Source: Deinococcales bacterium (lineage in GTDB: Bacteria > Deinococcota > Deinococci > Deinococcales > JAAFIG01). From it: a DNA stretch of 64,000 nt. Shown piece after piece: positions 1 to 64,000 of the stretch. How positions within the stretch are numbered: the first letter of the stretch is position 1; each line of letters begins with the position of its first letter. Below the pieces are notes generated by a model that ran no database searches, was not told the origin of the DNA, and worked only from the letters and a program-made list of their open reading frames with translations. A program made the position numbers and the translations under genes. The stretch lies in contig JAYWGM010000101.1 in NCBI GenBank assembly GCA_043778225.1, positions 32,001-96,000 on the forward strand. Direction: 5' to 3'.

Positions 1-1
1 T

Positions 2-847
2 GTGGCGGGTGTACCAGAAATTATCTTGTGTACTCCACCCAATAAAGCTGGTTTTGTAGACCCAACAACCTTGGTGGCGGCGCTCGAGAGTGGCGTGACC
101 AAGGTTTTTGCGCTGGGTGGCGCGGTGGCGGTTGGGGCAATGGCATTTGGTACTACAACTGTGCCTCGAGTAGATAAAATTGGCGGTCCTGGCAACATTT
201 ATACTGTCCTAGCAATGCGACAGGTCTATGGGCAAGTTGGGATTATTTCGCTGCCCGGTCCAACTGAAACACTGGTGCTGGCAGACGACACCGCTAATCC
301 TGTTCATGTTGCCGCCGATTTACTGGCACAAGCCGAACACGTGGAGGCTGAGCCAGTGCTGATTGCCTTATCTAAGCACATTCTCAAAGCAACTTTGTTA
401 GAACTCGAGCAACAACTGGCGAGCCTACCCGAGCCAAACCAGACTTGGGCACGGAACGCTTGGCAACAGCGCGGCAAAATTATTCTCGAGTCAAATTTAG
501 AGACTGCCCTCGAGTTGGCGAATCATTATGCTCCCGAGCATTTGTGCTTACTGATTAAAAACCCGTGGGATGCTTTAGGGTTTGTCAAACACGCTGGCGG
601 GGTTTTTATTGGCGAGTACAGCATGGAAGCCCTTGGCGATTATTTGGCAGGACCTAGCCATGTGATGCCAACCATGGGTACAGCCCGGTTTAGTAGTCCC
701 GTCAATGTGCGCGATTTCCAAAAGATTATCAGTGTCGTGGCAGTCAATCGCCAGACCTTAGCGGCAACTGCCAAAGATGCAGCACGCTTGGCTCGAGCCG
801 AGGGTTTAGAAGCCCACGCCCGAGCCATTGAATCGCGCAGTCCATAA
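2..847 (+). CDS. hisD: Histidinol dehydrogenase (5' truncated by window edge)
   Basis: Motifs VDKIGGPGN, PGPTE, DLLAQAEH, YAPEHL, GDYLAGPSHVMPT, AEGLEAHA. Confidence 0.96.
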   Translation: MAGVPEIILCTPPNKAGFVDPTTLVAALESGVTKVFALGGAVAVGAMAFGTTTVPRVDKIGGPGNIYTVLAMRQVYGQVGIISLPGPTETLVLADDTANPVHVAADLLAQAEHVEAEPVLIALSKHILKATLLELEQQLASLPEPNQTWARNAWQQRGKIILESNLETALELANHYAPEHLCLLIKNPWDALGFVKHAGGVFIGEYSMEALGDYLAGPSHVMPTMGTARFSSPVNVRDFQKIISVVAVNRQTLAATAKDAARLARAEGLEAHARAIESRSP

Positions 848-934
848 AACGTGGCAAAGGTATGAATTGTCAGTTTAAGGCTACATTTGAGCCAAATCGC
901 TCACGGTTTTAGACATCGGCGTAGAATACAACCA

Positions 935-2137
935 ATGTGGCGTTGGCTTTTGGTCATAACAGCTTTGGTAATCTACTTGGTTTTTCGTCCGAGTAGCGCT
1001 CCATGGCTAATTTGGATTGCTTTTTTGGCTGGTTTATTCTGGTTTTTATACCGCTCAGCCCCAAAAATTCGAGTCCAGCGCCACCTCGAGACCCCCCAAA
1101 CATTTACCAAAGAAGCTGTGGCGGTGCGCCTAGAGGTGCAAAGCTCGAGTTGGCTACCGGTGCTTTTTAGCCTCTCGGAAAACGTACCTCTGACCCTGAT
1201 TCCAGACCGACAAGTGGCGCTAAGTGGTTTATTTTGGGGAAACAGCAAACACATTCTCGAGTATCGGGTCTTGCCCAATATGCGTGGTGAATTTGTTTTT
1301 TCAGCGCTCAGTCTCGATTGGAGCGACCCACTTGGCTTATTTTTAAGGTACAGCAAAATCCATGCCGATACCACAACCCTATTGGTCTATCCGGGACTGC
1401 ATCCGCTTGAATTACCCGATTTACGGCGTCCACTTTTAGCCGATGGTCCAAAAGCCAAGTTTTTTGGTCTCGAGGATGCGCTCTCCTTGCGTGGGGTGCG
1501 TGATTATGTGGCGGGTGACGAATTGCGCCGTATTCATTGGAAACAAACCGCCCGCTTTGGCACAGACAACGGGCGTTATCAGCGCCTTGTGGTGCGCGAG
1601 TACGAACGGGTGGCTGCCACTGGGGTTCATGTTCACCTCGATGTGTCGAGTCGTGGAAGAATTGGCGAGATTTTCTTAGAAAGTGCCACCCGTTTGGCTG
1701 CCAGTTTACTCAAAAGCGCCAACCAACAAAACTTGCGGGTCAGTGTCTCGAGCGCCTTAGCCAACACCGAAAGCGGCTCGAGTTTTCAGGCTTTAGAATG
1801 GGCTTTTGCTTTTTTAGCAAGGCTTAAACTTGAGCCAGATGCACCACTGACCGTACCATTACCCGAAGCAGGGGCAAACCTCATTTTAATCACCGAACGC
1901 GCCCCAAGCGATTTGATCACTGGAGCAATTCATGCCCGAGCTAGAGCCGCCCGAGTGACCGTGATTGCTCTGCCAGAAGGCTTTTATCTCGAGCCGGGCG
2001 AGTCGGGTAGGGCTGTACACCATGCGCCACCCGACGAAATCCGCGAACTCAACCGCAAAGCGGGGGTTCTCGAGGAGGCTGGCGTACAGGTTGTGGTCTT
2101 GCGCGGCGACGAAAGCATCCTAAAACTTGTCTCTTAG
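935..2137 (+). CDS. DUF58-domain membrane protein
   Basis: Two N-terminal TM segments, then DPLGLF, VRDYVAGDELRRIHWKQTAR and LVVREYE. ATG at 935 is preceded by TAGAAT. Confidence 0.88.
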   Translation: MWRWLLVITALVIYLVFRPSSAPWLIWIAFLAGLFWFLYRSAPKIRVQRHLETPQTFTKEAVAVRLEVQSSSWLPVLFSLSENVPLTLIPDRQVALSGLFWGNSKHILEYRVLPNMRGEFVFSALSLDWSDPLGLFLRYSKIHADTTTLLVYPGLHPLELPDLRRPLLADGPKAKFFGLEDALSLRGVRDYVAGDELRRIHWKQTARFGTDNGRYQRLVVREYERVAATGVHVHLDVSSRGRIGEIFLESATRLAASLLKSANQQNLRVSVSSALANTESGSSFQALEWAFAFLARLKLEPDAPLTVPLPEAGANLILITERAPSDLITGAIHARARAARVTVIALPEGFYLEPGESGRAVHHAPPDEIRELNRKAGVLEEAGVQVVVLRGDESILKLVS

Positions 2138-2151
2138 GGTAGTCTAAGACC

Positions 2152-2988
2152 ATGAATGGTAAAACAGTCGTGGTTACGGGTGCAAGCAATGGTATTGGGG
2201 CAGTTACCGCCCTCGAATTGGCACGGATGGGCGCTCGAGTGCTGCTTGTGGTTCGCAACGAAAGCAAGGGAAAGGCGGTACTCGAGCAGATTAAAACCCA
2301 AACAGGGCAAAGCGCCGAGCTATTTTTAGCCGATTTATCACTTATCAAAGAAACCCGCCGTGTCTCCGAAGAAATCAGCCGCGCTGCCCCAAGCATAGAT
2401 GTGTTGGTTAATAACGCTGGTGGTATTTTTACCGAACGGCTCGAGACCAAAGAGGGCTTAGAGATGACTTTTGCGCTCAATCATATGGCATATTTTGCCC
2501 TAACCACGCTCTTACTACCAAACCTGAAAGCGGCTGGTAACGCCCGCGTGGTCAGTGTCTCGAGCAACGCCCACACGATGGCGCGAATCCGTTGGGACGA
2601 CCTCCAAGCCAAACAAAAATTTAATGGCACAACTGCCTATGGCAATTCTAAACTGATGAATTTACTCTTTAGCAACGAACTCTCGCGGCAACTTGAGGGG
2701 ACTGGCATGACCAGCAACGCGCTTCATCCGGGTGTGGTCTCGACCGGTTTTGCTCAGAACGCGACTGGCGCTTGGAAATGGTTTTTTAGCCTTGCCAAAC
2801 CATTTTTAATCACCCCAGAAAAAGGCGCAGAGACCAGTATTTACTTAGCCTCGAGCCTCGAAATCGAAAGTGCCACCGCGATGTACTGGGATAAAAAACG
2901 CCCTGTTCAACCCAGCGCCGCCGCACTCGACCAGACCAGTCAAAAGCACCTTTGGCTCGAGTCAGAAAAAATCATGGCAAGCCTGTAA
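2152..2988 (+). CDS. SDR family oxidoreductase (retinol-dehydrogenase-like)
   Basis: TGASNGIG, NNAG, YGNSK (YxxxK), HPGVV. Confidence 0.92.
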   Translation: MNGKTVVVTGASNGIGAVTALELARMGARVLLVVRNESKGKAVLEQIKTQTGQSAELFLADLSLIKETRRVSEEISRAAPSIDVLVNNAGGIFTERLETKEGLEMTFALNHMAYFALTTLLLPNLKAAGNARVVSVSSNAHTMARIRWDDLQAKQKFNGTTAYGNSKLMNLLFSNELSRQLEGTGMTSNALHPGVVSTGFAQNATGAWKWFFSLAKPFLITPEKGAETSIYLASSLEIESATAMYWDKKRPVQPSAAALDQTSQKHLWLESEKIMASL

Positions 2989-3052
2989 ATTTGTGATATG
3001 AAAATTTTGCACACGACAACCCAGACGTGTATTTTGACTGATTAACCGACTA

Positions 3053-3169
3053 AGCGACCCTGCCCGTGAGCGACCACGCCCGTCAGCGACCCAGCCCGTA
3101 AGGTGCATCTTTAGGGTCAAGACAGGTGCGCGTTTGTGGTCAAGAGAGGTGCGTGTTCAGGGTCAAGAT
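3053..3169. repeat. Compound tandem repeat: 3 x 16 bp followed by 3 x 23 bp
   Basis: AGCGACCnnGCCCGTn at 3053, 3069, 3085; AGGTGCnnnTTnnGGTCAAGAn-like units at 3101, 3124, 3147. Confidence 0.9.
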
Positions 3170-3241
3170 GGTCAAATAAGAGTGATTAAGTTAATTCGGT
3201 ATAAGGTGGTCAGTAAAACAAGCCCCGCTCCTCCCAGTAAC

Positions 3242-3312
3242 CTCATCGCTTGAGAGAACCGCTTTACTCGTCGCTTGAGAGAGCCGCTTTACTCGTCGCT
3301 CGAGAGAACCGC
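3242..3312. repeat. 25-bp tandem repeat (about 2.8 copies) of the lepA 3' end and stop codon
   Basis: CTCRTCGCTYGAGAGARCCGCTTTA units start at 3242, 3267, 3292; the last copy is lepA coding sequence. Confidence 0.92.
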
Positions 3313-5079
3313 CAAGAAGGCTTCTTGCGGCACTTCGACTGTACCGATTGACTTCATGCGTTTGCGTCCTTTTTTCTGCTTATTTAAGAGTTTCTTTTTA
3401 CGGCTAATATCGCCACCGTAACATTTTGCCAGCACATCCTTGCGGTAGGCTTTGACAGTTGAACGGGCAATGATTTTTGCGCCAATCGCCGCCTGAATTG
3501 GAATCGGAAACATTTGCCGCGGAATCACTTCTGCCATTTTTTCAACGATTTTTCTGCCCATAAATTCGCTCTTATCGCGGTGGCAAATAATCGCTAAGGC
3601 ATCCACAATTTCGTTGTTGACCAAAATGCCAACTTTGACCAAATCGTTTTCTTGATAGCCAATCTGTTCGTAATCCATGCTGGCATAACCTCGCGACAGG
3701 CTCTTCAAGCGGTCGTGAAAATCGTACAGCACTTCGCCAAACGGCACTTCATAGCGCAGTTCTACGCGCTTACCGACATAGACCAAATCTTTCATGTTGC
3801 CGCGCTTTTCGACCAACAACTGCATAGCACTGCCAACGTACTCTTCGGGCAGAATAACCGATAGCTTAATGTATGGCTCTTCGATTCTTTCGATGCGGTC
3901 GGCAGTTGGCAAATGGGCTGGGTTCTGCATTTCAAAAATTGTGCCATCGGTTTTGGTGACACGGTAAATCACACTTGGCGCGGTGGCAATTAAATCCAAG
4001 TCAAATTCGCGCTCGAGCCTTTCTTGCACCACTTCGGCATGAAGTAAACCCAAGAATCCACAGCGAAAACCAAAGCCCAGCGCCTCGGAGGTTTCGGGTT
4101 CAAAATGCAGCGCCGCATCGTTGAGTTGTAGTTTCTCGAGCGCGTCGCGCATTCGTGGGTAATCAGCCGTCTCGGTTGGGTACAAACCACTAAAAACCAC
4201 AGGCTGGGATGGCTTAAAGCCCGGAAAAGGCGAGGCTGTGACTCGAGTTGCGCCAGTCACGGTATCGCCAACTTGGGCATCGTGGATGTCTTTGATGCTG
4301 GCGGTAAACCAGCCAACCTCGCCAGCGCTCAACGAACCAATTTTCTCGAGTGCGGGGCGAAAAACCCCGACTTCATCCACGATACATTCTTTTTCGGTGT
4401 TCCAGAATTTCACACGGTCGCCGGGCGTGATGCTGCCCTCGAGAACCCGAATAAACGGAATCACGCCCTGATAACTGGTGTAGACACTATCAAAAACCAA
4501 GGCTTTAAGCGGTGCGGCAGGGTCGCCAGATGGGGCTGGAATCCGCGCCACAATTGCCTCGAGAATTTCAACCACACCCTCGCCCGTTTTACCACTGGCA
4601 AAGAGCGCATTTTCGGCTGGAATACCAATCACTTGCTCGAGTTCCATTGCCGCTTCAACTGGCATGGCGCTGGGTAAATCAATTTTATTGACGACTGGCA
4701 CAATTAAAAGGTCGCTCTCGACCGCCAAATAGGCGTTGACAATCGTTTGTGCCTCGACTCCTTGGCTGGCATCCACCAAAAGCAGCACGCCTTCGCAGGC
4801 AGCCAAACTGCGCGAGACTTCGTAGTTAAAATCGACATGACCGGGGGTGTCGATCAGGTGAAAAATATAGCTCTGCCCGTCTTTTGCGACATAATCTAAA
4901 CGCACTGGGGTTGCCTTAATCGTGATGCCACGCTCACGCTCGAGGTCGAGGGTATCGAGGGTTTGTTCGCGGCGGTCTCGGTCGGTCATTGCCCCACAGA
5001 CATCAAGAATCCTGTCCGCAAGGGTACTCTTCCCATGGTCTACATGGGCAATAATAGAAAAATTACGGATGTTGCTCAC
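3289..5079 (-). CDS. lepA: Elongation factor 4 (LepA)
   Basis: [48 protein letters not shown]. Confidence 0.99.
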
Positions 5080-5379: not shown

Positions 5380-5389
5380 CGAACAAAGA

Positions 5390-18391: not shown

Positions 18392-18446
18392 AAACTGTAG
18401 GCAACACCCCTTGTTATACCTGATTGGTTTTCATAATATATGAAGC

Positions 18447-18532
18447 GGTCAACGGGAGTGCCGTCCTTAGAACACGGCTGAGAAATATCCCCTGAACCTG
18501 ACGCGGTTAATACCGCCGTAGGGAGCGTGACC
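18447..18532 (+). ncRNA. TPP riboswitch
   Basis: GGGAGTGCC...GGCTGAGAAATATCCCCTGAACCTGA...GTTAATACC..CGTAGGGA, upstream of a thiamine-binding protein gene. Confidence 0.93.
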
Positions 18533-18591
18533 AGACACCCGAGGAGACTCGAGGTCTGACGCTTCCTCTTTCGCTCGAAAGGGGATTTTTT

Positions 18592-27544: not shown

Positions 27545-28243
27545 ATGCAATTTGTTAAGGCAGTACCGCCTTTGCAGTGGATTTTTATTGTGCTTGGTTG
27601 GGCTTTACTTGTGGCTGGTGTGGTTGCCAACCAAGTGACCCTGCTGACCTTGGGGACAATTACCGCCGATTTCTTAGCGGTTTACTTACTGTATCTGATT
27701 TCGACCCGCACCCCAAAAGCCTGGCAACAGACCATTTTTGGTTTTGTGATTGGGATGCTGGTGATTGGCTTATCCGACTTGGCAGTGCTGGCTGGCTTAG
27801 ACAGCCTCGAGCCGCCTTTGAGTCTGTTGGGGGCGCTGCTTTTTTTGCTTGCCAGTCTGGCTTTACCGATGCTGCTTGAGCGCCAAGGGATGTACAAAAA
27901 AGGTTTTGCCTTACAAATTGTTTTGATTGCGGCAGCCGTTGCCATCCTTGTTTCGGCACTGCTGACGATTTTATTCCAGCCACCGATGCTCCGCATTGCT
28001 TACCAGACCACAGGCTTATTTCTCTCGAGCTTATTTATCATGCAGAGCCAAGATTTTGCGGGTGGCGCAATTGGGCGGGTTTTGCGGATGCTTTCGATTG
28101 CTTTTGCGGTCTCGAGTTTTTCGCAAGTGGCTTTTGCGGTCATCCCAAGTTTAGCGGTGCTGCCAATCATTCCAGACCTTGCGCGTCAGGCTTTCTGGAT
28201 GGCTGGCACAACTTTATTGGCATTTGTACCCAGCCGAAAATGA
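27545..28243 (+). CDS. Hypothetical integral membrane protein
   Basis: About 8 hydrophobic segments; ATGA overlap with mobA. Confidence 0.7.
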   Translation: MQFVKAVPPLQWIFIVLGWALLVAGVVANQVTLLTLGTITADFLAVYLLYLISTRTPKAWQQTIFGFVIGMLVIGLSDLAVLAGLDSLEPPLSLLGALLFLLASLALPMLLERQGMYKKGFALQIVLIAAAVAILVSALLTILFQPPMLRIAYQTTGLFLSSLFIMQSQDFAGGAIGRVLRMLSIAFAVSSFSQVAFAVIPSLAVLPIIPDLARQAFWMAGTTLLAFVPSRK

Positions 28244-28779
28244 AGCTCTCTGGGGCGGTCTTGGCGGGTGGGCGTTCGAGCCGTTTTGGCACAGACAAAG
28301 CCCAGTTTATATGGCATCAAAAAACCTTGCTCGAGTGGGCGTTGGGTAGTTTTATAGGCTTAGAAGACGTGATGGTGATTGGCGGCTCGAGTGCCACGAT
28401 TCCCGACCCAGAGCCATTTCTTGGGGCGCTCCATGGTGTAAAAAGCGCCCTCGAGAATGCAGTTTACCCTCGGGTCGCCATCATGGCGTGTGATATGCCC
28501 AACCTCAGCCCCGCCTATTGGCGGTTTCTCGAGTCAGATAAAGCCGATATTGTGATTCCCCAAAATAAAAACGGGCAACTCGAGCCACTGGCGGCAATTT
28601 ACTCAAGGGCGTGTTTGGGGCTGGTGCAAAACGCAATTACTCGAGGCGACTTAAAACTTTCGGGCTGGTGGCAAGCCCAGACCGAATTCAGCGTTCGGGT
28701 TGTAACATGGCAAGAACTCGAACCATTTTTCCCGAGCGATATTTTTTTGAATGCCAATTATCTCGAGGATTTATCGTGA
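28240..28779 (+). CDS. mobA: Molybdenum cofactor guanylyltransferase
   Basis: LAGGRSSRFGTDKA, ACDMP, EPLAAIY. Confidence 0.92.
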   Translation: MKLSGAVLAGGRSSRFGTDKAQFIWHQKTLLEWALGSFIGLEDVMVIGGSSATIPDPEPFLGALHGVKSALENAVYPRVAIMACDMPNLSPAYWRFLESDKADIVIPQNKNGQLEPLAAIYSRACLGLVQNAITRGDLKLSGWWQAQTEFSVRVVTWQELEPFFPSDIFLNANYLEDLS

Positions 28780-30899
28780 CCCGCCTAATCATGATTTTTA
28801 TTTGCTTTTTCTTGAGTGCTGCCCGAGCCGAAACGCTCGAAACCCAAGACACCGCCCAATTATGGCAAGCTGCCCAAGCCGTGATGCTCGAGGTGGCTGG
28901 TCAAAAAATACCAGAAAACCCCGAGCCAGATGGTTTACGTGGCATTGTGGCATGGTTGCTCGAGCAGGTGGCTCGACCGCCGCCAGCTTGGTTTTTGGGC
29001 GGCGTTATTCAGGCTCAGGCGGGTTTAACTTTGCCCGATACTCGAGCAGCAGCGCGACGCATGGCGTGGCTACAAGCTAGGCAATTCCCAAGTTTAGCCG
29101 ATTTGAACCTGTCGGTTAGTAGCAACGCTTTTGAGTCTCGAGCCGAGTTTGGCAGGGCTTTTGCTGAGTATTTAATCCAGCGTTGTGGGCTAAATAAACT
29201 TAAAACCATCCTGAAGTTTTTTTATGCCAATTGGAGTTTATCCGATGCTTTCTTCGAGGTGCTGGGCGTTCGGCTTGAGCAATTATTTGAGGATTGGCGG
29301 GTTCTCGAGGTTAATCGTGCCACCCAACAAGCTGACCAACTCGAGGCAACTGGCTTACCGACTGGTGAGGTGGTGGCACAGGATTTGGGTACAACCGTTT
29401 GGCTTTCGGATACGGATTTCATCACTGTTCAAAGCACTGGCTTGTACCGTGGGCAAATCAATCAACCCAAGCTCGAGTTGCTGGCTCGTTTACCATCCGT
29501 ACCATCGCGCCTGAGTTTGGCGACCGATGGTGCTTTAATTTACTCGAGACCTCGAGCTTACGGCACAATTTCTGGCGAAGTCTTTCGGTTTTTGAATGGT
29601 CAAGAACAACAACTGACCATTGGCGCAAATTCCACCGAGGCTGTGGCAGATGGTGCGTGTGTTATCTATGCTAAAGCCGCCTCGAGCTTATGGCATTGGT
29701 GCAACGGTCTGGAAAAATTGCTTTGGACTGCCCCAAAAGGCTGGCGCATTGGGCATTTGGCGGCTCGAGAAAACAAAATTGCCATGACCGTGGTTCGTGG
29801 CACTTTTTGGGATATTGCAGTGCTGCAAAATGGCGTTCTCGAGTTGCAAACCTCAGATTTAGCCCACGATGAAACACCGATTTGGCTCGATTCAACAACC
29901 CTACTTTACTCGAGTGACCGCCTTGGCACACCGCAACTTTGGCGCATTCGGCTGGGCGAAAAAGCCAGCCAACAAGTCACCGCCATTCTGGGTGGTGCAT
30001 TTGACCCCAAGCTGCTGCCAAACGGGTTGTACAGTTTCTCGAGCTTTGCAGGACTTGGTACAGAAACCCGCTTGGTCAGTCTCGAGAACGGTCTTGCTGT
30101 CGCGCTTGAGTTTTCGCAAACCCAAATTCCCAATAGCCCAGTCCCAAGCCCCTCAAGCCTGCTGCCAGATATTGGTATTGGTTTCTCGAGCGGGATTGGA
30201 TTAGAAGCTAAAGGCAACAATGGTGTTTTGGCATATCGTCTGGCTGGCGGTTACGACTTATTTGGTGTGGCTGGTTTTGGCGCGGATTTTTCCTTGCGTT
30301 TTGCGCCATTCCAAGGCTGGCAATTGACCGCCAACGGCAGCAGCAATCAGGCTCGAGGCTATGGCATTTTGGCTCGAGTGACATGGTCTGGGACTGGCGA
30401 AATTTTTACGCAAAGGGTCGGCGTGGTGTTTTCGCCGTTTATCACGCTCGATAATGGTCTACCAATTGTTTGGTTTGATTTTGGGCTGGGGGCTGGCTCG
30501 AGCGACGCTTGGGGCTACATCACCCAAAACTGGCAACTTTCTACCCGAATCAACAGCCAAGCCCAATACAGCCTTGGTCTAGGTCTGGCTGATTCTCTGG
30601 CAGGCGCGACCTTCGAGACCAGTTTGGGCGCTTCTGGCACATTGGGGGCTGCGCCAGTCTTGTCAGCACGTTTGGCGGCTCGAGCCTCCTTGCCTATCTT
30701 TTGGCGCTTTGGTGATGGTGTGCTGAGTTTTGAGCGCTTGACGTTCTACACTTCTGGTTCACTCTCGAGTCGAGAAGTGGCTTTTTGGTTGCAAATTCTG
30801 CTGGATGGCGTACTGAATTACAACACGGTTTTTACACTTGGACTCGAGCTTGGTTACTCGAGTCGCGGCGCATGGGTCTTTGGGCTTGTCTGGCGCTAA
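28776..30899 (+). CDS. Secreted protein with TolB/PD40-like propeller and beta-barrel-like C terminus
   Basis: GTGA overlap start, signal peptide, PIWLD..LLYSSDRLGTPQLW, amphipathic beta-strands ending WVFGLVWR. Confidence 0.6.
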   Translation: MTRLIMIFICFFLSAARAETLETQDTAQLWQAAQAVMLEVAGQKIPENPEPDGLRGIVAWLLEQVARPPPAWFLGGVIQAQAGLTLPDTRAAARRMAWLQARQFPSLADLNLSVSSNAFESRAEFGRAFAEYLIQRCGLNKLKTILKFFYANWSLSDAFFEVLGVRLEQLFEDWRVLEVNRATQQADQLEATGLPTGEVVAQDLGTTVWLSDTDFITVQSTGLYRGQINQPKLELLARLPSVPSRLSLATDGALIYSRPRAYGTISGEVFRFLNGQEQQLTIGANSTEAVADGACVIYAKAASSLWHWCNGLEKLLWTAPKGWRIGHLAARENKIAMTVVRGTFWDIAVLQNGVLELQTSDLAHDETPIWLDSTTLLYSSDRLGTPQLWRIRLGEKASQQVTAILGGAFDPKLLPNGLYSFSSFAGLGTETRLVSLENGLAVALEFSQTQIPNSPVPSPSSLLPDIGIGFSSGIGLEAKGNNGVLAYRLAGGYDLFGVAGFGADFSLRFAPFQGWQLTANGSSNQARGYGILARVTWSGTGEIFTQRVGVVFSPFITLDNGLPIVWFDFGLGAGSSDAWGYITQNWQLSTRINSQAQYSLGLGLADSLAGATFETSLGASGTLGAAPVLSARLAARASLPIFWRFGDGVLSFERLTFYTSGSLSSREVAFWLQILLDGVLNYNTVFTLGLELGYSSRGAWVFGLVWR

Positions 30900-32398
30900 C
30901 GCTGCCCGATTTGTAAAATCCCAAGGCACATCTCATCCACTGTACCTTCGCCCCAAACGGTGTAGCGCGGTTTGACCCGAGTACCACCAATTTCGGGTTG
31001 AACTTCGGGTGCATTATCGTATTGGCAGGTCACCCGCACTTGGTCGCCGTTTTGTAGGTCTATCGGCTTCTCGAGCCAGTAACTGCTCTGCCAATGGAAA
31101 TCCCAACGTGGAATCTCGAGGATCGTTTGACTTTTGTTTTCGCGGACTAGCTCGAGTTTAATCGCTTGCCCAAGCAAGTGCATATGTCCAAGCATCCCGT
31201 AAATAGCCAGCTTGGCATCTGGGGCTAAACGCATCGGGAAAGTGCATTTGTTAATCACTTTTCCAGCCGAACCAGAAGTAAATTGCTCGAGGCTGCTGCC
31301 GCAGAAATTAACAAAAACTGGATTTTTGAACAATGCCGAAGTCCCATCGCCCATGCGGGAGGCTCGAGCATAGGCAGCATCGCGGTGGCATGGGTCGGCT
31401 GGGTCGGTTGGGTATGCGCCAAGGCATGGAATTTCGACTGGTGCAAGGATAATCCCCGAGTTCAGACGTTTGATTGGGGCTTCTTTGGGGGCAAAGTACA
31501 ATTCGGCTTTGCTTTGGTCAGAACCTTTACCACCAAGTAAATTGTAATGCAGTTGCAAAACCAGCACATCGCCGGGATTGATTTGTGTGCCAGTACCTTG
31601 GGGGTAATCAACGCTGCCCTGTCCGGGTGCCCAAACGCCAACAATGTTGGGCGTGCCAAGGTTATTGCCCGGTCCACCAAAACATGGGTAGCCAAGTCGT
31701 CCATCGGTGGCTTTGTTCTCGAGTTGTACTGCACTTTCGGCTTTGGTCTTGTCTATTTGAAAAATAACCACATGATGCACAATTTTTTTGTTGGCTGGCA
31801 CGATGTTATAGGCATTCATAAAACGCGATTCGGACAATTTAGGGTCAAAAATAAAGCAGCGATATTCGTCGGTCAGGCTGGCATCGGGCAGAAACTCCGA
31901 TTTTGGGCTTAAAACCATGTCGGGTTGGCGTTTTTGGCTGCTCGAGACGGCTTGGGTTGCCACAACTTTACCAAGCGGCGCACCCGCCCACGCCCAATTG
32001 GCAATAATTGCAATTTCATCGGGGCTAAGGCGTTTATCATGCCACAAGGCTGGGGTTGAACCACCCGCCGTGACTGGCGGCATATATTTACTCTGTACGG
32101 CTTTTTGGATGGTGCGTGCCATCGGGGTCACTTGGGCGGCGGTCTCGAGGGCAAAAGGTCCAATGTTGCCAGCGCTGTGGCAACCAACACAACTGCGATC
32201 CAAAATTGGTTTGACGTGTTCGTAATACTTAGGGATATACGACAACAACGGCGGCTGGGCTTGCTGCATCAGCACGGGCTTACCATGCCCGTGCTTAGAG
32301 CGGGTTTCGGATGCGCCATTGTTCTGGGTTGCACCCCAAACCACGCCGCTTGCAATCAGGGTTGCGACCAAGCCCAACGACCAAATTCTCGAGTTCAT
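30896..32398 (-). CDS. Copper type II ascorbate-dependent monooxygenase-like protein with c-type heme motif
   Basis: Signal peptide, CVGCH, DEYRCF, VHHVV, QLHY, HMHLLG, WDFHWQ, DEMC. Confidence 0.85.
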   Translation of the reverse strand: MNSRIWSLGLVATLIASGVVWGATQNNGASETRSKHGHGKPVLMQQAQPPLLSYIPKYYEHVKPILDRSCVGCHSAGNIGPFALETAAQVTPMARTIQKAVQSKYMPPVTAGGSTPALWHDKRLSPDEIAIIANWAWAGAPLGKVVATQAVSSSQKRQPDMVLSPKSEFLPDASLTDEYRCFIFDPKLSESRFMNAYNIVPANKKIVHHVVIFQIDKTKAESAVQLENKATDGRLGYPCFGGPGNNLGTPNIVGVWAPGQGSVDYPQGTGTQINPGDVLVLQLHYNLLGGKGSDQSKAELYFAPKEAPIKRLNSGIILAPVEIPCLGAYPTDPADPCHRDAAYARASRMGDGTSALFKNPVFVNFCGSSLEQFTSGSAGKVINKCTFPMRLAPDAKLAIYGMLGHMHLLGQAIKLELVRENKSQTILEIPRWDFHWQSSYWLEKPIDLQNGDQVRVTCQYDNAPEVQPEIGGTRVKPRYTVWGEGTVDEMCLGILQIGQR

Positions 32399-35486: not shown

Positions 35487-37244
35487 TTACTTGGCTTCGC
35501 GCAGTGGGTCTACACCAAGGGCTTTGACGATGCCAAAGAAAACTTCGGTGTTGTCAATGCTGCCCTTAAAGTGTTGGCTGCCAGGACCCCACGCAAAGAG
35601 TGGAATTGGGTCAACGCTGTGCGGACCACTGTTTCCACCAATGTTACCACCAGTTAAAACGCCACCAGCATTGGCTGGGTTTGGAACAAGGGTTGTGCCT
35701 TGGGCAGCCACCGCAACAAATGGTTTGTCGCCGACCAAGAAATTAGCAAAGTGGGCTGGGGCTGCGCCGTAACCAATGGCTAAACCAATATCGGTTCGTG
35801 CCAATGGCAAACCATTGTTGTCTCGAGCATTGTGGTAGGTCGGAAAGCCGTATTGTTCGTACAAACCAACACCAGCAGCTGTACCTGTGGGGCTACCTGC
35901 ACCCGCAGCTGTGTTGTATGTACCAAAGGTGCTGTTGGTGTGGGCGTGGTCGGCAGTCGTTAGAATCAGGGTGTCATTGCGCTTTTTTGCCCATTCTTTG
36001 GCTTTGCCAACCGCAACATCCATTTCGATGGCATCCCAAGTGGCGCGTTGCCAATCGAGGGCGTGTTGCAAGACATCGGAGTTGCTGCCTTCAACCACAA
36101 GCATAAATCCATTTGGGTGCAGTGCCTCGAGACTTTCGATGGCTTTGTTGGTCATGTTCCAGAGCAAAGGTTGGTCGTTAAATGCACCAAGCACGTCTGG
36201 GTTCTTAAATTGGGCGCGGTCAAGGTAGGCGTTCATCCAAGCCAACTGAAACAGACCAAGCACTTTACCCGGTTTGGTTGCCTCGAGTTCTTTGGCAGTG
36301 CTGGCAAATTGGTAGCCGGCTTTTTGGAACTCACCAATCATGTCGCGCTCGTTTTTACGGCGTGAACCTTTTGTGGCTTTAGGAATAAAGTCTTGGCTAC
36401 CGCCACCCATAATCACACTTGGACGAGCGCCAGAATCGAACATTTGTTCGACAATTTCGCTGTAGTTGCCACGGCGACGGGTATGGGCTAACCAACCGGC
36501 TGGGGTAGCATCCGACAAGTAGCTGGTGGTGACCAAACCAAAGCCATAATCGCGGGTGCGCTTGAGGATTTCAAAAAGGTGTTCTTGCTTAGGGTCATCA
36601 AATTGGTCAGCAGTGTTATCTGGGTAAGAACCCAAACCGTTGTTGCTGGCTTTATGACCAGTGCTGAAAGCACTGGCGCTGTTGGCGCTGTCGGTCACTA
36701 ATCCATCTAAACCACTGGTGTGAACAGTGGCAACGCTATCGGCTTTTTCCATGTTCAGAAAGTCGCGTGGTTTGCCATTTTCGATGCCGTGCATGACGAT
36801 ACGAGCCGCCGTCACGGTATTCCAGCCCATGCCGTCGCCAACAAAAACAATCACATTTTTAGGGCGCTTACCCGATGCCATGCCGCGCACCGATTCGTAG
36901 TTGGCTTGGCGTACAAAAACACCCGAGTCGTCTACACCACGGGCGATAACCTCGACTTTACCAGTGGTTTTAAGCATCACATCGCGCACCATAAAGTTTT
37001 GAACTCCGGCTGCACCCGCCGACATCTCGAGTTTCTTACCAAAAACTTGCTCTGCATTGCGTCCGTTGACCGTGATTGCCACTTCACGGGCTGTGCCTTT
37101 TAATTCCGACAACTCGACCCGAAAATCAAACTTTGCGCCAGCCAAAAACTTTGCACCTTGCACCGGCAGAATCGTGACCTTTGCGGCTTCAACGCCACTG
37201 GCGAGCAGGGCTGTTCCAAGAATTCCAAAAACTATTTTTTTCAT
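35487..37244 (-). CDS. Alkaline phosphatase (PhoA family) with extra N-terminal domain
   Basis: Signal peptide, NVIVFVGDGMG, TDSANSASA, DATPA, TADHAH, IDNTEVF. Confidence 0.93.
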   Translation of the reverse strand: MKKIVFGILGTALLASGVEAAKVTILPVQGAKFLAGAKFDFRVELSELKGTAREVAITVNGRNAEQVFGKKLEMSAGAAGVQNFMVRDVMLKTTGKVEVIARGVDDSGVFVRQANYESVRGMASGKRPKNVIVFVGDGMGWNTVTAARIVMHGIENGKPRDFLNMEKADSVATVHTSGLDGLVTDSANSASAFSTGHKASNNGLGSYPDNTADQFDDPKQEHLFEILKRTRDYGFGLVTTSYLSDATPAGWLAHTRRRGNYSEIVEQMFDSGARPSVIMGGGSQDFIPKATKGSRRKNERDMIGEFQKAGYQFASTAKELEATKPGKVLGLFQLAWMNAYLDRAQFKNPDVLGAFNDQPLLWNMTNKAIESLEALHPNGFMLVVEGSNSDVLQHALDWQRATWDAIEMDVAVGKAKEWAKKRNDTLILTTADHAHTNSTFGTYNTAAGAGSPTGTAAGVGLYEQYGFPTYHNARDNNGLPLARTDIGLAIGYGAAPAHFANFLVGDKPFVAVAAQGTTLVPNPANAGGVLTGGNIGGNSGPHSVDPIPLFAWGPGSQHFKGSIDNTEVFFGIVKALGVDPLREAK

Positions 37245-37276
37245 GTTGCCTCCGAGCGCTGAGCCTAAGCGCACGA

Positions 37277-37432
37277 TGTCAGGCAATCGTCAGGAAACCA
37301 CGTTATAGACAGCTTAGTTTAATGATAATGAAAAACTATTATCATTAAAAACAAGCTCGAGACTCAAGAAAGCAACAATAGACCTGAAACTCGGCTGACA
37401 ATTGCGCTGTCTAATGATAAAGGATTCTCAAT
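37277..37432. promoter_or_regulatory. Divergent promoter region with Pho-box-like repeats and Fur-family-like palindromes
   Basis: CTGAC-N6-CTGAC(A) at 37277-37293 (minus) and a variant at 37384-37400 (plus); perfect 12-bp IR at 37318-37349; AATGAWAAA-NN-ATTMTCAWT at 37327 and 37413. Confidence 0.6.
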
Positions 37433-37451
37433 TGTGACACAAGGAGCATTT

Positions 37452-39416
37452 ATGAAACTGATGTTGGATACTCAAGATTTCGACACCTCGGGCAATCGTA
37501 CTGGCGCAACCTGTCACTGGAAATGCGGCGACGCTTGCGCCACCCCAGTGCTGAACCAATCCGAAAATATCTACAGCCGCGACATCATCGAACAAGCCAT
37601 TGACCGCCGCAGCATCTTAAAAGGTGGCTTTGCTTCGCTGATGATGCTGTCCGGAGCCTCGAGCCTGCTGCCAGCCGCCGCCCAAGGTGGCAATCTGGGT
37701 TTTAGCCCAATTAAGTTGTCCACCGAAGACCGCACCATTTTGCCGCAGGGTTACGAAGCCAATGTCGTGATTCGTTGGGGCGACCCAATCAGCCGTGGTG
37801 CAAAGCGTTTTGATGTGAACAATTTCGATGCCAAAACCCAAGAAAATAGCTTTGGTTACAACTGCGATTATGTCTCATTTTTGCCCTTGCCGGGCTACCA
37901 GACCAAGCGCTCAAACCAAGCCCTTTTGTGGACCAACCACGAGTACACCAATCCAGAACTGATGTTCCGTGGTTATGCGGCTGGCAAAGCGACCAAAGAA
38001 CAAGTGGATGTTGAATTGGCAGCCCACGGTGGCACAGTGGTTCAGGTTTTCCGCGATACTTCGGGCAACATCGAATACCTGCCAGTCTCGAGGTACAACC
38101 GCCGTATTACCGCCAATACCCCAATGGAAATTACGGGTCCTGCGGCTGGACATCCCTTGTTGCAAACCCGTGCCGACCCAACTGGCAAGCGTGTTTTGGG
38201 AATGCTCAATAACTGCGCTGGTGGTACAACCCCGTGGGGAACTATTTTAACTGCCGAAGAAAACTTTAACCAATACTTTGCTTACAACAACAACGTCAAG
38301 GATGCCTCCATCAAAGCCTTACACGCCCGTTATGGTGTGACGGGCGGCGCATCTGGGCGCGTTTGGGAAAATCATTACGAGCGCTTTAACTTAGAAGCCA
38401 ACCCGAACGAGCCATTTCGCTTTGGCTATATTGTCGAGATTGACCCTTACGACCCAAACATGACCCCAAAAAAGCGCACTGCTTTGGGGCGCTTTAAGCA
38501 CGAAGGCGCAGAATCCAGCCTTGCCAATGATGGTCGTGTGGTGATGTACTCGGGCGACGACGAACGCTTTGACTATATGTACAAGTTTGTCACCAAGGGT
38601 AAATTTAATCCCACCAACCGCGCTGCTAATCTGGATTTGCTCGACGAGGGTACGCTTTATGTGGCTCGAGTCAACGCTGACGGTACAGGCGAATGGATGC
38701 CGCTCGTCGTGGGCAATGGCAAACTGACTGCCGAGAATGGTTTTGCAACCCAAGCCGACATCTGCATTAAAACCCGCCAAGCGGCTGATTTACTTGGTGC
38801 GACCAAAATGGATAGACCAGAAGATTTCGAGCGCAACCCTGTGACTGGCGCGGTTTACTGCGTGCTGACCAATAACTCCAACCGCACTGCTGCCCAGATT
38901 GATGCTGCCAATCCTCGAGCCAGCAACCGCGATGGTCATATCATCGAGCTTCTCGAAGACGGCAACGATGCCGCCGCCACCAAATTTAAGTGGAGCATCT
39001 TTTTGGTTTGCGGTAATCCAAGCGACCCAACCACCTTTTTTGCTGGTTTCCCCAAAGACAAGGTTTCGCCAGTCGGCACACCGGATAACATTTCCTTTGA
39101 CAACAAAGGCAATATGTGGATTGCCACCGACGGTATGGAAAACAGCAACGTTAAAGCCCACGACGGCGTTTTTGCAGTCCCTACCACAGGCGCAAACCGT
39201 GGTCAGGTTCAACAATTTATGAGTACCGTCAAGGGTGCAGAAGTCTGCGGACCGATTTTTACCCCAGACAACCGCAATTTCTTTGCTGCAATTCAACACC
39301 CCGGCGAAGGCGGCACTGTCGATAAGCCAGTCTCCTTATTCCCAGACGGCGTTGGTGTACCACGTCCAAGTGTGATGTCGATCAAGAAAACCGATGGCGG
39401 TATCATCGGTACATAA
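37452..39416 (+). CDS. phoX: PhoX family alkaline phosphatase (Tat-exported)
   Basis: DRRSILKG Tat motif, NHEY, NCAGGTTPWGT.LT.EEN, LGRFKHE, MDRPED, PDN, IQHPG. Confidence 0.95.
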   Translation: MKLMLDTQDFDTSGNRTGATCHWKCGDACATPVLNQSENIYSRDIIEQAIDRRSILKGGFASLMMLSGASSLLPAAAQGGNLGFSPIKLSTEDRTILPQGYEANVVIRWGDPISRGAKRFDVNNFDAKTQENSFGYNCDYVSFLPLPGYQTKRSNQALLWTNHEYTNPELMFRGYAAGKATKEQVDVELAAHGGTVVQVFRDTSGNIEYLPVSRYNRRITANTPMEITGPAAGHPLLQTRADPTGKRVLGMLNNCAGGTTPWGTILTAEENFNQYFAYNNNVKDASIKALHARYGVTGGASGRVWENHYERFNLEANPNEPFRFGYIVEIDPYDPNMTPKKRTALGRFKHEGAESSLANDGRVVMYSGDDERFDYMYKFVTKGKFNPTNRAANLDLLDEGTLYVARVNADGTGEWMPLVVGNGKLTAENGFATQADICIKTRQAADLLGATKMDRPEDFERNPVTGAVYCVLTNNSNRTAAQIDAANPRASNRDGHIIELLEDGNDAAATKFKWSIFLVCGNPSDPTTFFAGFPKDKVSPVGTPDNISFDNKGNMWIATDGMENSNVKAHDGVFAVPTTGANRGQVQQFMSTVKGAEVCGPIFTPDNRNFFAAIQHPGEGGTVDKPVSLFPDGVGVPRPSVMSIKKTDGGIIGT

Positions 39417-39420
39417 ACAT

Positions 39421-39458
39421 AAAAAACTCGAGGCTGCGATACTAGCCTCGAGTTTTTT
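39421..39458. terminator. Bidirectional intrinsic terminator with CTCGAG in both arms
   Basis: AAAAAACTCGAGGCT-loop-AGCCTCGAGTTTTTT between convergent phoX and mdh. Confidence 0.85.
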
Positions 39459-39463
39459 CATTT

Positions 39464-39489
39464 GTAGGGGAGACCCTTGTGGTCTCCCT
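39464..39489 (+). repeat. GTAG-type REP-like element
   Basis: GTAGGGG-AGACC-CTTGT-GGTCT-CCCT. Confidence 0.7.
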
Positions 39490-39511
39490 GTTCTTATCTA
39501 ACGGACGTTAT

Positions 39512-40489
39512 TTAGAGTAGCCCTAGTTCTTGCACGGCTTGGCGTTCTTCCTCGAGTTCTGCCGCCGTGGCATCCATTTTTGCACGGCTAAAATCGTTAA
39601 TCTCGAGTCCTTGAATGATGCTGTATGCCCCATCTTTACAAGTCACTGGAAAGCTGTAAATTAAGCCTTCGGGGATGCCATAACTGCCATCGGATGGAAT
39701 GCCCATACTTGTCCAAGCCGAACCCAATGCCCAATCGTGCATATGGTCTATGGCGGCATTGGCAGCACTGGCAGCGCTCGATAAACCACGGGCTTCGATA
39801 ATGGCAGCGCCGCGCTTAGCCACCGTTGGAATAAACGTAGCCTCGAGCCACGCTTGGTCGTTGACCAATTCGGCGGCATTTTTGCCAGCCACCGTGGCAT
39901 GGAAAATATCTGGGTATTGGGTACTCGAGTGATTGCCCCAGATGGTTAGTTTTTCGATGCTCGAGACTGGCGAATTGGTTTTAGCAGCCAGTTGCGACAG
40001 CGCCCGATTGTGGTCTAAACGGGTCATGGCAGTAAATTGCTTTGGGTCGAGTTTTGGCGCGTGGCTTTGGGCAATTAAAGCATTGGTGTTGGCTGGATTA
40101 CCGACCACCAGCACTTTTACGTCTCGAGCCGCAACTTCGGACAGGGCATGACCTTGGGGCTTAAAAATACCGCCATTGGCTGCCAACAGGTCGCCGCGTT
40201 CCATGCCTTGTTTGCGTGGCATTGCACCAACCAACAGTGCGTAGTTCACATCGGCGAAAGCAACCATGGGGTCGTCGGATGCCACCATGCCGTAAAGCAG
40301 TGGAAAAGCACAATCCTCGAGTTCCATCATCACGCCCTGCAAGGCTTTTAAGGCGGGGGTAATCTCGAGCAAGTGCAAAATAACCGGCTGGTCTTTGCCA
40401 AGCATTTCGCCACTGGCAATCCGAAAAAGTAAACTATAGCCAATTTGACCAGCCGCACCAGTAATCGCAACACGAACAGGAGCTTTCAT
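39512..40489 (-). CDS. mdh: Malate dehydrogenase
   Basis: [52 protein letters not shown]. Confidence 0.98.
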
Positions 40490-47200: not shown

Positions 47201-47806
47201 AACCTTGAGGTGCTTGAACGCTTCCCCGAGATGCCAGCCCCAGACCGTTTAGAAGCCATCAGCGACAGCGCCCGCGAAGCCACACGCCTCGCCCAACTGG
47301 CAAATGATTTACTGGCACTGGCTCGAGGTGACGCTGGCGACGGTCTGCGGCTTGAGCCACTTGAATTAGCGGCACTGGTTTCAGAAACCCTCCTAGGTGC
47401 AACTTATCTGGATATTCAAAACCAACTCGAGTTGGGTACAATCGAGTCGGCTTTGGTTTTAGGCGATGCCAATAAACTTAAACAACTGGTGCTGATTCTG
47501 CTCGATAACGCCATGAAATACTCGCCAGAAGGTGGAAAAGTCAGCCTGAGTTTGCAGCACCAAACCAGCCATGCCGAATTAAGAGTCTCGGACAGTGGTC
47601 AGGGTATTGACGAAGCAGACCTCGAGCGGGTTTTTGAACGTTTTTACCGCACCGATACCTCGCGTTCACGCCAGACCGGCGGCACGGGATTAGGTTTACC
47701 GATTGCCCGTTGGATTAGCGAGCAGCACCACGCTAAACTCTGGCTCGAGAGTCAGGTTGGCGTTGGCACAACTGCCGTGTTGCGTTTACCGCTCATGCCA
47801 GAATAA
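44228..47806 (+). CDS. CheB/CheR fusion with PAS domains and histidine kinase
   Basis: GIGASAGGLEA, VLSGTASDG, VTSFFRD, GCSTGQEAYS, CRNLLIY, EELETAKEELESTNEE, AHELRAPL, DNAMKY, GTGLGL. Confidence 0.95.
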   Translation: MIKPKPKELPVVVGIGASAGGLEAFSKLLKALKPDTGMAFVLLQHLERSHDSLLSELLARTTSMKVIEIIDGISLFANCVYVIPPNVSVVMKRGVLRLLPRPAGRELHQPINEFFSSLSQARLHQAIGVVLSGTASDGTVGLEAIKAAGGITFAQRPESARSPAMPRSAIKAGVVDFVLSPEEIAAKLVSLAQDPYLGKANKRQARAKPSAAASSDDGFEAILHLLQDAKDVDFSLYRSTTIGRRIRRRMLLDSMTSTTRYIEHLRSQPAALELLYQDLLIGVTSFFRDAHVFECLQKTVFPELLKDRAADDVLRIWVSGCSTGQEAYSLGMAYLECMALAKVNIPLQIFATDLNAPMLEKARAGWYSAASMENVSPERRKRFFSEEKDGWRISEAVREKIIFSKQNVFADPPFSRMDLVTCRNLLIYLEPALQSRVIPTLHYALKPQGVLLLGASETVGRFEDLFGVLDQSCRFYSKRLVSSRIPKLEGRIVKSVVSKQEPTASVVSASTVQTGREVDHLLLLRYAPSSVVVNDALEVVQFRGSTSQFLEAPSGKATFNLLKMAREGLMLPLRRLTDQARQENRVVRLEHLRYSYNGAVVAINLEVQPLKQPGCLLVLFEVLPELPAAQPTAEPQTQTRQLEDLNRELLESREYVRFIQRQNEDENEQFQAANAEMQSSGEELQSLNEELETAKEELESTNEEIQTLNQELTVRNAELLRLNTVLTNFQSSAELAIVAVSLDLEVQRFTPQAERTLGLRNTDLGQPIGRLSHLLNLPDLEELVLTVITQEKPTDCEVRDRDGRWFLLRIRPYYTPENDIDGAVLVLFEMDALKRAELERERLQQQTEVVFESLADGLLALSHDWMITYINANGARLANRSKETMLGRNYWSIFPEVIDTVFETGYRKAMTERVTVDLEAYYPALAAQFEVRAVPVETGITVFFRDVTTRHETEILVAETKEKLRVLAESQQRFLADAAHELRAPLAVIQGNLEVLERFPEMPAPDRLEAISDSAREATRLAQLANDLLALARGDAGDGLRLEPLELAALVSETLLGATYLDIQNQLELGTIESALVLGDANKLKQLVLILLDNAMKYSPEGGKVSLSLQHQTSHAELRVSDSGQGIDEADLERVFERFYRTDTSRSRQTGGTGLGLPIARWISEQHHAKLWLESQVGVGTTAVLRLPLMPE

Positions 47807-48167: not shown

Positions 48168-48261
48168 GAGCGCAACAACTTTTTTCGGTGGAACAGTATC
48201 TCATACCACAAAGTCTATCACCACCAACTGATTCTAAGCTGAGGCGAACCTTGGATTTTGT

Positions 48262-48373
48262 CCTCCCCTGCGAAGCAGTAGGGGAGGTGGCGAGCGAAGC
48301 GCGTCGGAGGGGTCTTGCACAGCGTCTACCTGTTGCAAACCCATCCGTCACTCGTTGCACTCGCGCCACCTCC
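48262..48373. repeat. GC-rich REP/REPIN-like imperfect inverted repeat
   Basis: CCTCCCCTGCGAAGCAGTAGGGGAGG hairpin; GGAGGTGGCG...CGGAGGGGT pairs with ACCCATCCG...CGCCACCTCC. Confidence 0.6.
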
Positions 48374-48564
48374 ACCTACCTTCTTGCTCACAAGACAGCA
48401 CCTTCTTGACCACATACGCGCACCTATCAGGCGTGGTCGCTATCGGGCTGTTCGCGCTAACGGCAGGGGAGGACTTTTTGCGTTGCACACGAATTTCTTG
48501 ATTAAGTCACAGGCAATGAAGGCAAACCTTGGACAGCCTTTGTTTTTTGTTTTACAATACTGCC

Positions 48565-62501: not shown

Positions 62502-62509
62502 AAAAACCT

Positions 62510-62562: not shown

Positions 62563-62701
62563 CGCAAGCATGGGCTGTTAAGGTATTTGATGCCGTCATA
62601 AACAGTCTAAAACGCCACAAAAAGGAATCTGGCGAACAAGCCTTGAGCTTGCTTTACATTTGTATTTATCTAAAAAGTCTGCTAAGATTCGCCGCGTGAC
62701 C

Positions 62702-63688: not shown

Positions 63689-63742
63689 TTGCGTTTTGTT
63701 TATCAAACACCTGCCTAAAAATAGTGGGTAAGCGTCTTATTT

Positions 63743-63777
63743 TATAGAAAAATGCTTTCTAAAAGCATTTTTCTATA
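63743..63777. terminator. Perfect 16-bp AT-rich inverted repeat (terminator or protein-binding site)
   Basis: TATAGAAAAATGCTTT-CTA-AAAGCATTTTTCTATA. Confidence 0.5.
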
Positions 63778-63791
63778 CCTTTAAGACCCTC

Positions 63792-63847
63792 TTGACAGAC
63801 GCAACAGACTGTATTACCATATGTCTGTTCAATTTTACTAAACAAAG
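63792..63847 (+). promoter_or_regulatory. Sigma70-type promoter and putative operator
   Basis: TTGACA-17-TACCAT, then the same 17-mer AATTTTACTAAACAAAG at 63831-63847. Confidence 0.75.
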
Positions 63848-63915
63848 TAGAACGCTTCGAGAAAAACTCGAGCGGCTGGCAACGTCCAGTTCTCGAGCGT
63901 TACAGAGGAGAGGTC

Positions 63916-64000
63916 ATGAAGAATTTGCGGTTATTGGCAGCATTTGGCATCGGTGCGCTGGCGGTTGGGGCAATGTTTGCTTCGGCGCAGACAGGTCGTA
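63916..64000 (+). CDS. Secreted protein, probably a sugar-binding protein (3' truncated by window edge)
   Basis: GAGGAG RBS and signal peptide MKNLRLLAAFGIGALAVGAMFASAQ; identity inferred from context only. Confidence 0.55.
   Translation, partial: MKNLRLLAAFGIGALAVGAMFASAQTGR

Follow-up and report, generated by a model that had tools for sequence, protein, structure and literature searches.

What keeps a six-base palindrome at more than six copies per kilobase across a bacterial genome? This question is raised by a 64,000-nucleotide stretch of contig JAYWGM010000101.1 (positions 32,001 to 96,000; the window) from an uncultured Deinococcales bacterium, in which CTCGAG, the XhoI site, occurs 418 times (6.5 per kb), dispersed throughout. 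A sequence-only reading of the window had likened the word to HIP1, the highly iterated palindrome (HIP) of cyanobacteria, and had suggested a lineage-specific mark, either driven by methylation or repair or bound by protein. Our analysis shows that CTCGAG works like a HIP in its abundance, its presence in every reading frame, and its conservation. The best explanation of these data is a fixation bias that acts on the six bases as DNA and keeps this highly iterated palindrome in place.

The 418 copies compare with 15.6 expected from base composition, 7.8 from dinucleotides, and 26.9 from trinucleotides. The sequence-only reading had hand-counted about 20 copies in bases 1 to 3000 and had judged the density high throughout; the count is exactly 20, and each of the 16 4-kb bins holds between 15 and 39. 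An order-4 Markov model expects 365 copies (observed/expected ratio [O/E], 1.16), which is hardly informative because its 5-mers stem mostly from CTCGAG itself. In the genome to which the window belongs (G000; 4.03 Mb, 107 contigs, 89% complete), CTCGAG is the top hexamer, with 24,877 copies (6.2 per kb). This is 27 times the expectation from base composition, 15 times that of an order-2 Markov model, and 9 times that of synonymous-codon shuffles. In the literature, HIPs are dominant short palindromes at 500 to 2500 or more per Mb (PMC4390886), and CTCGAG stands at 6,174 per Mb.

Could this excess be a by-product of TCGA richness, of codon, codon-pair, or amino-acid bias, or of assembly or cloning? 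TCGA frequency, which the sequence-only reading had singled out as a possible full explanation, does not account for it. Of the 599 TCGA tetramers in the window, 418 are part of CTCGAG, as are 24,877 of the 36,442 genome-wide (68%), and the 15 remaining xTCGAy words are not raised, at 34 to 1,452 copies each genome-wide. The 18 one-mismatch neighbors of CTCGAG have 145 to 1,381 copies each. The enriched unit is exactly six bases, with flanks that lack a consensus except for a mild preference for G on the 5' side and C on the 3' side.

Codon bias fares no better; the earlier reading had considered codon-pair bias insufficient on its own. Among 3,086 genes of at least 150 amino acids (simple longest-open-reading-frame calls), we counted 21,643 CTCGAG, distributed over the three frames as 12,802, 4,340, and 4,501. 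Three synonymous-codon shuffles of these genes left 2,190 to 2,344 copies and two codon-order shuffles left 973 to 999. Density is 6.0 per kb between genes and 6.2 per kb within them. These data show that CTCGAG is favored as a whole hexamer at the DNA level, irrespective of frame, and an explanation by TCGA or codons was rejected on the TCGA-word counts, the synonymous shuffles, the other frames, and the intergenic density. Two observations do lean toward compositional bias, namely, that the Leu-Glu frame holds 59% of coding CTCGAG and that high-GC relatives in family f4 have CTCGAG within about two-fold of CTCGAC. However, all 107 contigs (4.0 to 10.6 per kb) and all 19 genomes of the family are enriched, and in two public runs of one study labeled as a biofilm metagenome, either of which may be the source of the DNA, long pieces of contig agree with the window at every base. 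We regard bias or artifact as having a negligible chance of being the cause.

The word has also altered proteins, because Leu-Glu is the most overrepresented dipeptide (O/E, 2.33, versus 0.96 for Glu-Leu and 1.58 for Ser-Ser). CTC GAG encodes 12,802 of 18,458 Leu-Glu pairs (69%), versus ∼2% predicted from codon use elsewhere. The ribosomal-protein operon carries 62 copies in 16 kb versus 2.1 in shuffles, dnaK carries 7 in 1.9 kb, and rpoB carries 12 in 3.5 kb. Density in these genes falls to about 3.4 to 3.9 per kb, yet this is ∼19 to 30 times the shuffled level.

We then asked about the distribution of the word. LepA places G000 among uncultured Deinococcales: its closest matches are metagenome-assembled genomes of that group (81 to 96%), and its match to Deinococcus antarcticus is at 75%. 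The G000 assembly yielded no 16S gene. Across the order we surveyed 301 genomes (G250 being counted only in the totals of family f2). All 19 genomes of the uncultured family of G000 (f1) have 4.3 to 6.8 CTCGAG per kb. Genera g13 (Meiothermus-type) and g24 (Calidithermus-type), both assigned from protein names, and g22 have 1.4 to 3.5; g9 (Thermus-type, judging by an M.TaqI orthologue with a TaqI endonuclease next to it) has 0.6 to 1.6; and g7 (Deinococcus-type by inference, 86 species in the sample) has 0.01 to 0.27. Families f2 and f4 are mixed (0.3 to 2.9), and among 95 sampled genomes of family f3 a single one is motif rich (G285, genus g56, 3.6 per kb; 58 copies in the 20 kb of locus L333 versus 8.6 shuffled). 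The span within the order is thus about 0.01 to 6.8 per kb, roughly 700-fold. A plasmid of Allomeiothermus silvanus has 88 copies in 41.7 kb versus 13.8 shuffled, a Deinococcus antarcticus locus has none versus 2.1 shuffled, and Deinococcus-type genome G084 has none among 71 TCGA in 20 kb. The idea of a lineage-specific mark therefore held for the family as a whole and proved too narrow in scope: Meiothermus- and Thermus-type genomes also favor or spare CTCGAG, and Deinococcus-type genomes avoid it. As a separate observation, G289 (f3, g33) has 37 CTCGAG versus about 2,600 CTCGAC per strand, a specific avoidance of roughly 70-fold.

Is the word also retained over evolutionary time? We aligned close relatives G003 and G005 (68 kb at 93.7% identity) and G003 and G001 (36 kb at 91.9%), using matches of at least 87% identity and at least 300 bases. 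Counted in both directions, 568 of 628 sites (90%) were conserved in the first pair versus 73% of all hexamers, and 344 of 379 (91%) in the second versus 66%. Among common hexamers, CTCGAG ranked third (of 559) in the first pair and first (of 79) in the second. Against a background of coding changes alike in base change, codon position, and synonymy, losses between G003 and G005 numbered 57 synonymous versus 179.5 expected and 23 nonsynonymous versus 61.5. Losses ran at 0.26 to 0.37 of the matched background (transversions, 0.14 to 0.22). With G001 as the outgroup (32 kb, two branches), 15 of 152 ancestral sites were lost, versus ∼45 by a hand estimate from the background. Site loss is reduced 3- to 4-fold, in transitions and transversions alike. 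On the alignments examined, CTCGAG is thus conserved beyond codon constraint, in the sense used for HIPs by Xu 2018.

Differences from variant to site were frequent: between G003 and G005 there were 39 synonymous ones versus 10.1, 16 nonsynonymous ones versus 2.0, and 9 transversions versus 1.1. Over the comparisons, they reached 3.7 to 3.9 times the background for synonymous and 6.5 to 7.9 times for nonsynonymous changes. We infer that the gain rate is raised as well, because a 3- to 4-fold lower loss alone cannot hold a 27-fold excess, unless the lineage is decaying. Divergence at four-fold-degenerate positions is flat with distance from CTCGAG, so the word does not lower the local mutation rate and its flanks enjoy no protection. 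The two metagenome runs yielded no within-species variants: long pieces of their contigs do not differ from the window at all, and the differences listed come from divergent contigs.

How do neighboring sites relate to each other? CTCGAG copies 6 to 15 bp apart occur at 0.29 to 0.38 of expectation; pair density is 0.8 to 0.97 at about 21 to 65 bp and then flat. The fraction of Leu-Glu pairs written CTC GAG is ∼0.3 when another site lies within 12 bp, 0.6 at 18 to 24 bp, and 0.8 beyond 90 bp, and occupancy in the other two frames depends on the nearest site in the same way. The contribution of a second site is much smaller when it lies within about 20 bp, and partial redundancy extends to about 90 bp. 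The spacing periodicity that the sequence-only reading had proposed looking for was absent up to about 590 bp (G000, distances up to 600 bp).

One potential explanation for the iterated word is host-level selection. CTCGAG would be bound by an abundant protein that recognizes the sequence and covers ∼20 bp, organizing the nucleoid or marking DNA for break repair, and each site would bring a small fitness gain. Such a protein predicts the conservation pattern seen, redundancy on the scale of its footprint, and the persistence of CTCGAG in the ribosomal-protein operon, dnaK, and rpoB; for HIP1, Xu et al. argued for selection and a role in chromosome structure (PMC5861425). However, densities that differ within one order from about 0.01 to 6.8 per kb are a wide range for a core architectural need, there is no spacing period to about 590 bp, and no candidate protein was found. 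We consider this explanation unlikely, though it deserves serious weight.

Does an enzyme accompany the word? In the Elhai model of a methylation-directed repair ratchet, a CTCGAG methyltransferase would mark the site-bearing strand, and repair would keep new sites. In f1 this would require an enzyme that was missed, replaced, or recently lost. A cognate methyltransferase, a hallmark of HIPs that the sequence-only reading had proposed looking for, was not found in the family: searches with PF01555, PF00145, PF07669, and PF02086 gave no methyltransferase group common to at least three of five f1 genomes. Across 62 genomes, PF01555 had no match in G013 (a single contig with 4.6 CTCGAG per kb) or in G285. 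TaqI_C matched 24 of 73 genomes, including 7 of 7 in g9 but 6 of 18 in f1, so it does not track CTCGAG. NucS had strong matches in 12 of 18 f1 genomes and in motif-poor f3, and none in G000 or f5. RadC was found in 0 of 62 genomes and Vsr in 4 of 62 (0 of 11 in f1). An XhoI-family endonuclease was matched in none of five genomes, in a search whose control was matched in none of 14. With no family-wide methyltransferase, Vsr, NucS, or RadC found, a methylation-based reading is unsupported. A Vsr repair signature was not seen either: the gene is missing from the 11 f1 genomes searched, TTCGAG and CTTGAG are not depleted (O/E, 1.4), and transversions are affected too.

Outside f1 a candidate enzyme does exist. 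An orphan beta-class DPPF adenine methyltransferase, in locus L431, lies between trpA and a gene for a metallo-beta-lactamase-fold protein, and it lies downstream of trpA in all three loci read. Its closest solved relative is M.RsrI, within a protein family of at least 7,914 members. At an E value of 1e-60, it is present in 24 of 26 g13, 4 of 4 g22, and 3 of 3 g24 genomes (31 of 33) and in 1 of 32 g9 genomes, a pattern that favors the ratchet. Within family f5, this match to motif richness could reflect a single evolutionary event. The ratchet also gains from the orphan CTCGAG methyltransferase known in Nocardia (PMC4752239), from the excess of polarized losses over gains (15 versus 5), as if a past force were fading, and from the shield against TaqI that adenine methylation at CTCGAG would provide, which would fit the Thermus-type pattern described below. 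However, the enzyme is in 0 of 19 f1 genomes, 0 of 95 f3 genomes (motif-rich G285 included), and 8 of 96 f2 genomes, whose carriers are weakly enriched. The lack of a methyltransferase common to three of five f1 genomes, with G013 devoid of PF01555, the absence of Vsr from the 11 f1 genomes, and the flat four-fold-site divergence also count against the ratchet. The model further relies on GmeC and levels off at roughly one site per kb (PMC4390886); it is inapplicable to CTCGAG in this form because the word has no GC dinucleotide. Altogether, we judge a repair ratchet distinctly improbable.

In Thermus-type genomes, the word has to be read against its neighbors. In all 17 g9 genomes compared, CTCGAC (5 to 62 per strand) and TTCGAG (12 to 326) are rare and CTCGAG is common (1,455 to 2,537), so CTCGAG escapes a purge of TCGA. 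GTCGAC, of the same base composition, has 0 to 30 copies in 23 g9 genomes. One 20-kb stretch (L337, from G022:C6) has 29 TCGA, of which 20 belong to CTCGAG; TaqI-type genes, for a methyltransferase and an endonuclease, contain 7 of the remaining 9. In a second stretch, 12 of 20 TCGA are CTCGAG. GAGCTC, the reversed control, reaches similar counts (1,113 to 2,680), which places CTCGAG near its neutral level in g9 and guards against overreading. The pattern fits a balance of opposing forces or plain exemption through methylation. On a T. thermophilus plasmid stretch, TCGA is not depleted (80 versus 84 shuffled), and CTCGAG has 30 copies versus 11.8.

The genome in which CTCGAG is so abundant avoids other palindromes. 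In G000, 31 of 64 six-base palindromes reach no more than 0.05 of their expected counts (20-fold or stronger avoidance), GGCC has 131 copies (O/E, 0.01), and GATC has an O/E of 0.13; GAGCTC has 0 to 25 copies in 16 of 19 f1 genomes. G000 carries many methyltransferase genes, several of them adjoining nuclease-like genes, and together with the palindrome avoidance these would point to heavy DNA exchange. There are 51 site-free gaps of at least 1.1 kb, the longest being mostly low-GC, foreign-looking blocks, some with restriction-modification genes. Very large open reading frames in contigs C93 and C34 (5,181 and 3,882 amino acids) contain long site-free stretches. In a triple-site scan of viral contigs (at least 131 loci), none of the 80 listed loci of at least 3 kb paired a high CTCGAG density with the GC content and GGCC/GATC avoidance of f1. 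One viral contig, L170, has a GC content of 0.60 and 50 CTCGAG in 10 kb, 10 times its dinucleotide expectation, and has no match among INPHARED phages.

What process, then, could act on six bases without a dedicated methyltransferase? Our favored mechanism is a site-recognizing bias in recombination or transformation that lets CTCGAG-bearing alleles win, and we place it close to, though short of, an even chance. A protein would read CTCGAG during homologous exchange, in natural transformation or when one genome copy converts another; polyploidy is a trait of Deinococcota and of many cyanobacteria. The strand or fragment bearing CTCGAG would win through better uptake or processing or through heteroduplex resolution across a short tract, and drive would spread such alleles even if each site brought scant benefit or none, overriding codon and weak amino-acid preferences. 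We favor drive because it explains the uniform density, the overridden coding preferences, the variation among lineages, and the coexistence with restriction-site avoidance. It also matches what is described for HIP1, in which a homologous site raised integration up to 7-fold, or >100-fold if methylated (10.1101/2024.09.10.611283), and which has been tied to competence genes (PMC13756078).

Several points weigh against drive. Repulsion between sites is weak in intergenic DNA, where only the 6- to 12-bp bin is low (31 versus 51.6) and the others are at 1.0 to 1.5. There is no association of CTCGAG with repeat ends (51 of 509 versus 58.75 in the control) or with alignment breakpoints (3 of 17 and 5 of 33); CTCGAG as a recombination breakpoint was rejected, with no excess at either. 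Fewer losses together with more gains are expected under drive and under host-level selection alike. The two-genome "gains" are losses viewed from the opposite side under an assumption of equilibrium, and G003 is common to both pairwise comparisons. In the polarized data, there were 15 losses and 5 gains, 3 of the gains arising from 48 one-off ancestors (∼1.3 by hand, not significant). No effector gene was found. Thermus thermophilus and Deinococcus radiodurans are not known to prefer particular sequences when they import DNA.

A broader proposal, which we hold tentatively and think rather doubtful taken as a whole, is that an old, methylation-independent Deinococcota system reads CTCGAG in DNA exchange or genome-copy conversion and drives its fixation. 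The system would be strongest in f1, moderate in Meiothermus-type genomes, hidden in Thermus-type genomes, where drive would just cancel TaqI-driven loss of TCGA, and lost in Deinococcus-type genomes. If so, Thermus thermophilus and Meiothermus would offer a way to dissect the general cause of HIPs, which would then be no specialty of cyanobacteria but arise convergently from biased recombination. Causes beyond those weighed here have, in our view, a small chance of being right.

How does CTCGAG compare with known systems? DNA uptake sequences (DUS) of Neisseriaceae and uptake signal sequences (USS) of Pasteurellaceae are enriched in core genes, are scarce in foreign DNA, and can alter proteins; they are nonpalindromic, occur at lower density, and are recognized by known uptake proteins. 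CTCGAG resembles them in being lineage-wide, present in core genes, scarce in foreign DNA, and able to alter proteins. Unlike these elements of about 10 bp (PMC5861425), it is a 6-bp palindrome with no extended flank consensus, and it is known here from sequence alone. Unlike restriction sites, which are avoided as the 31 palindromes of G000 are, CTCGAG is overrepresented, and unlike other TCGA words, it survives in genomes with TaqI-type genes. In Nocardia, the same six bases cluster beside dnaA and track the orphan methyltransferase (PMC4752239), whereas in f1 they are genome-wide and track no enzyme.

Like HIP1, CTCGAG is a short palindrome spread over the whole genome, every frame and intergenic DNA included, at levels far beyond Markov expectation, and it is conserved beyond codon constraint. 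HIP1 itself is GCGATCGC, and alternate HIPs also occur in cyanobacteria (PMC4390886, PMC5861425, PMC13756078). The window has 2 copies of GCGATCGC and its host belongs to Deinococcales; CTCGAG is therefore not HIP1 proper. It has another sequence, of six bases, in another phylum. Its density of 4.3 to 6.8 per kb exceeds the 0.2 to 2.73 per kb of HIP1 (PMC5861425), though the background of a 6-mer exceeds that of an 8-mer. It also differs in its redundancy over tens of bases and in having no cognate methyltransferase found in f1, although some HIP1-rich genomes are likewise without one (PMC4390886). Xu 2018 lists a chromosomal periodicity of 10 to 90 kb for HIP.

A second phylum, a denser word, no cognate methylase in the richest family, and a ∼700-fold range are natural contrasts for the cause of HIP1, which has been without explanation for about three decades. 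HIP1 abundance has been described as confined to cyanobacteria (PMC5861425), and our literature search, which left out most subscription papers and some supplements, found no report of CTCGAG overrepresentation in Deinococcota; PMC8112702 and the text of the Nanomotif preprint had no bearing on the matter. The spared CTCGAG of Thermus-type genomes and the enriched A. silvanus plasmid bring the question to cultured organisms, and G285 within poor f3 is a useful contrast for gene profiling. In f1, the word also skews both codon statistics and the sequences of proteins, and it serves to mark DNA of foreign origin.

Table 1. Positions of CTCGAG copies and other features (window coordinates unless a locus is named)
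Feature	Position	Strand	Basis
418 dispersed CTCGAG copies	1..64000		count in window
20 CTCGAG copies within bases 1-3000	83..2961		count in window
CTCGAG starts, first ten of 20	83, 165, 404, 485, 509, 792, 1085, 1144, 1256, 1469		window count
CTCGAG starts, last ten of 20	1747, 1777, 1988, 2069, 2234, 2281, 2440, 2559, 2850, 2956		window count
4-kb bin with most copies (39)	28001..32000		bin count
4-kb bin with fewest copies (15), spanning two alkaline phosphatase genes	36001..40000		bin count
lepA, taxonomic marker	3289..5079	-	sequence matches
Three-copy 25-bp tandem repeat, lepA 3' end	3247..3310	+	by eye
Repeat-rich spacer, SDR gene to lepA	3050-3310		
TPP riboswitch	18444-18542		
1,192-aa protein	44228-47806		
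Intergenic element, ∼130 bp	48250-48460		
Orphan DPPF adenine methyltransferase	L431:1435-2295		
TaqI-type methyltransferase and endonuclease genes	L337:15898-17881		

Some features of the window stand apart from the main question (Table 1). In the tandem repeat at the 3' end of lepA, the copies at 3249 and 3274 read CTTGAG and the third, at 3299, reads CTCGAG. The spacer between lepA and the short-chain dehydrogenase/reductase (SDR) gene contains short tandem units, and its high summed contig depth in both public runs suggests a multicopy element. An intergenic element with inverted-repeat character is free of CTCGAG; it has at least six more copies in G000, and copies also occur in G001, G003, and G005. 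The thiamine pyrophosphate (TPP) riboswitch lies 5' of the gene for the substrate-binding protein of a thiamine ATP-binding cassette transporter, and the 1,192-amino-acid (aa) protein matches CheB-like proteins and sensor histidine kinases.

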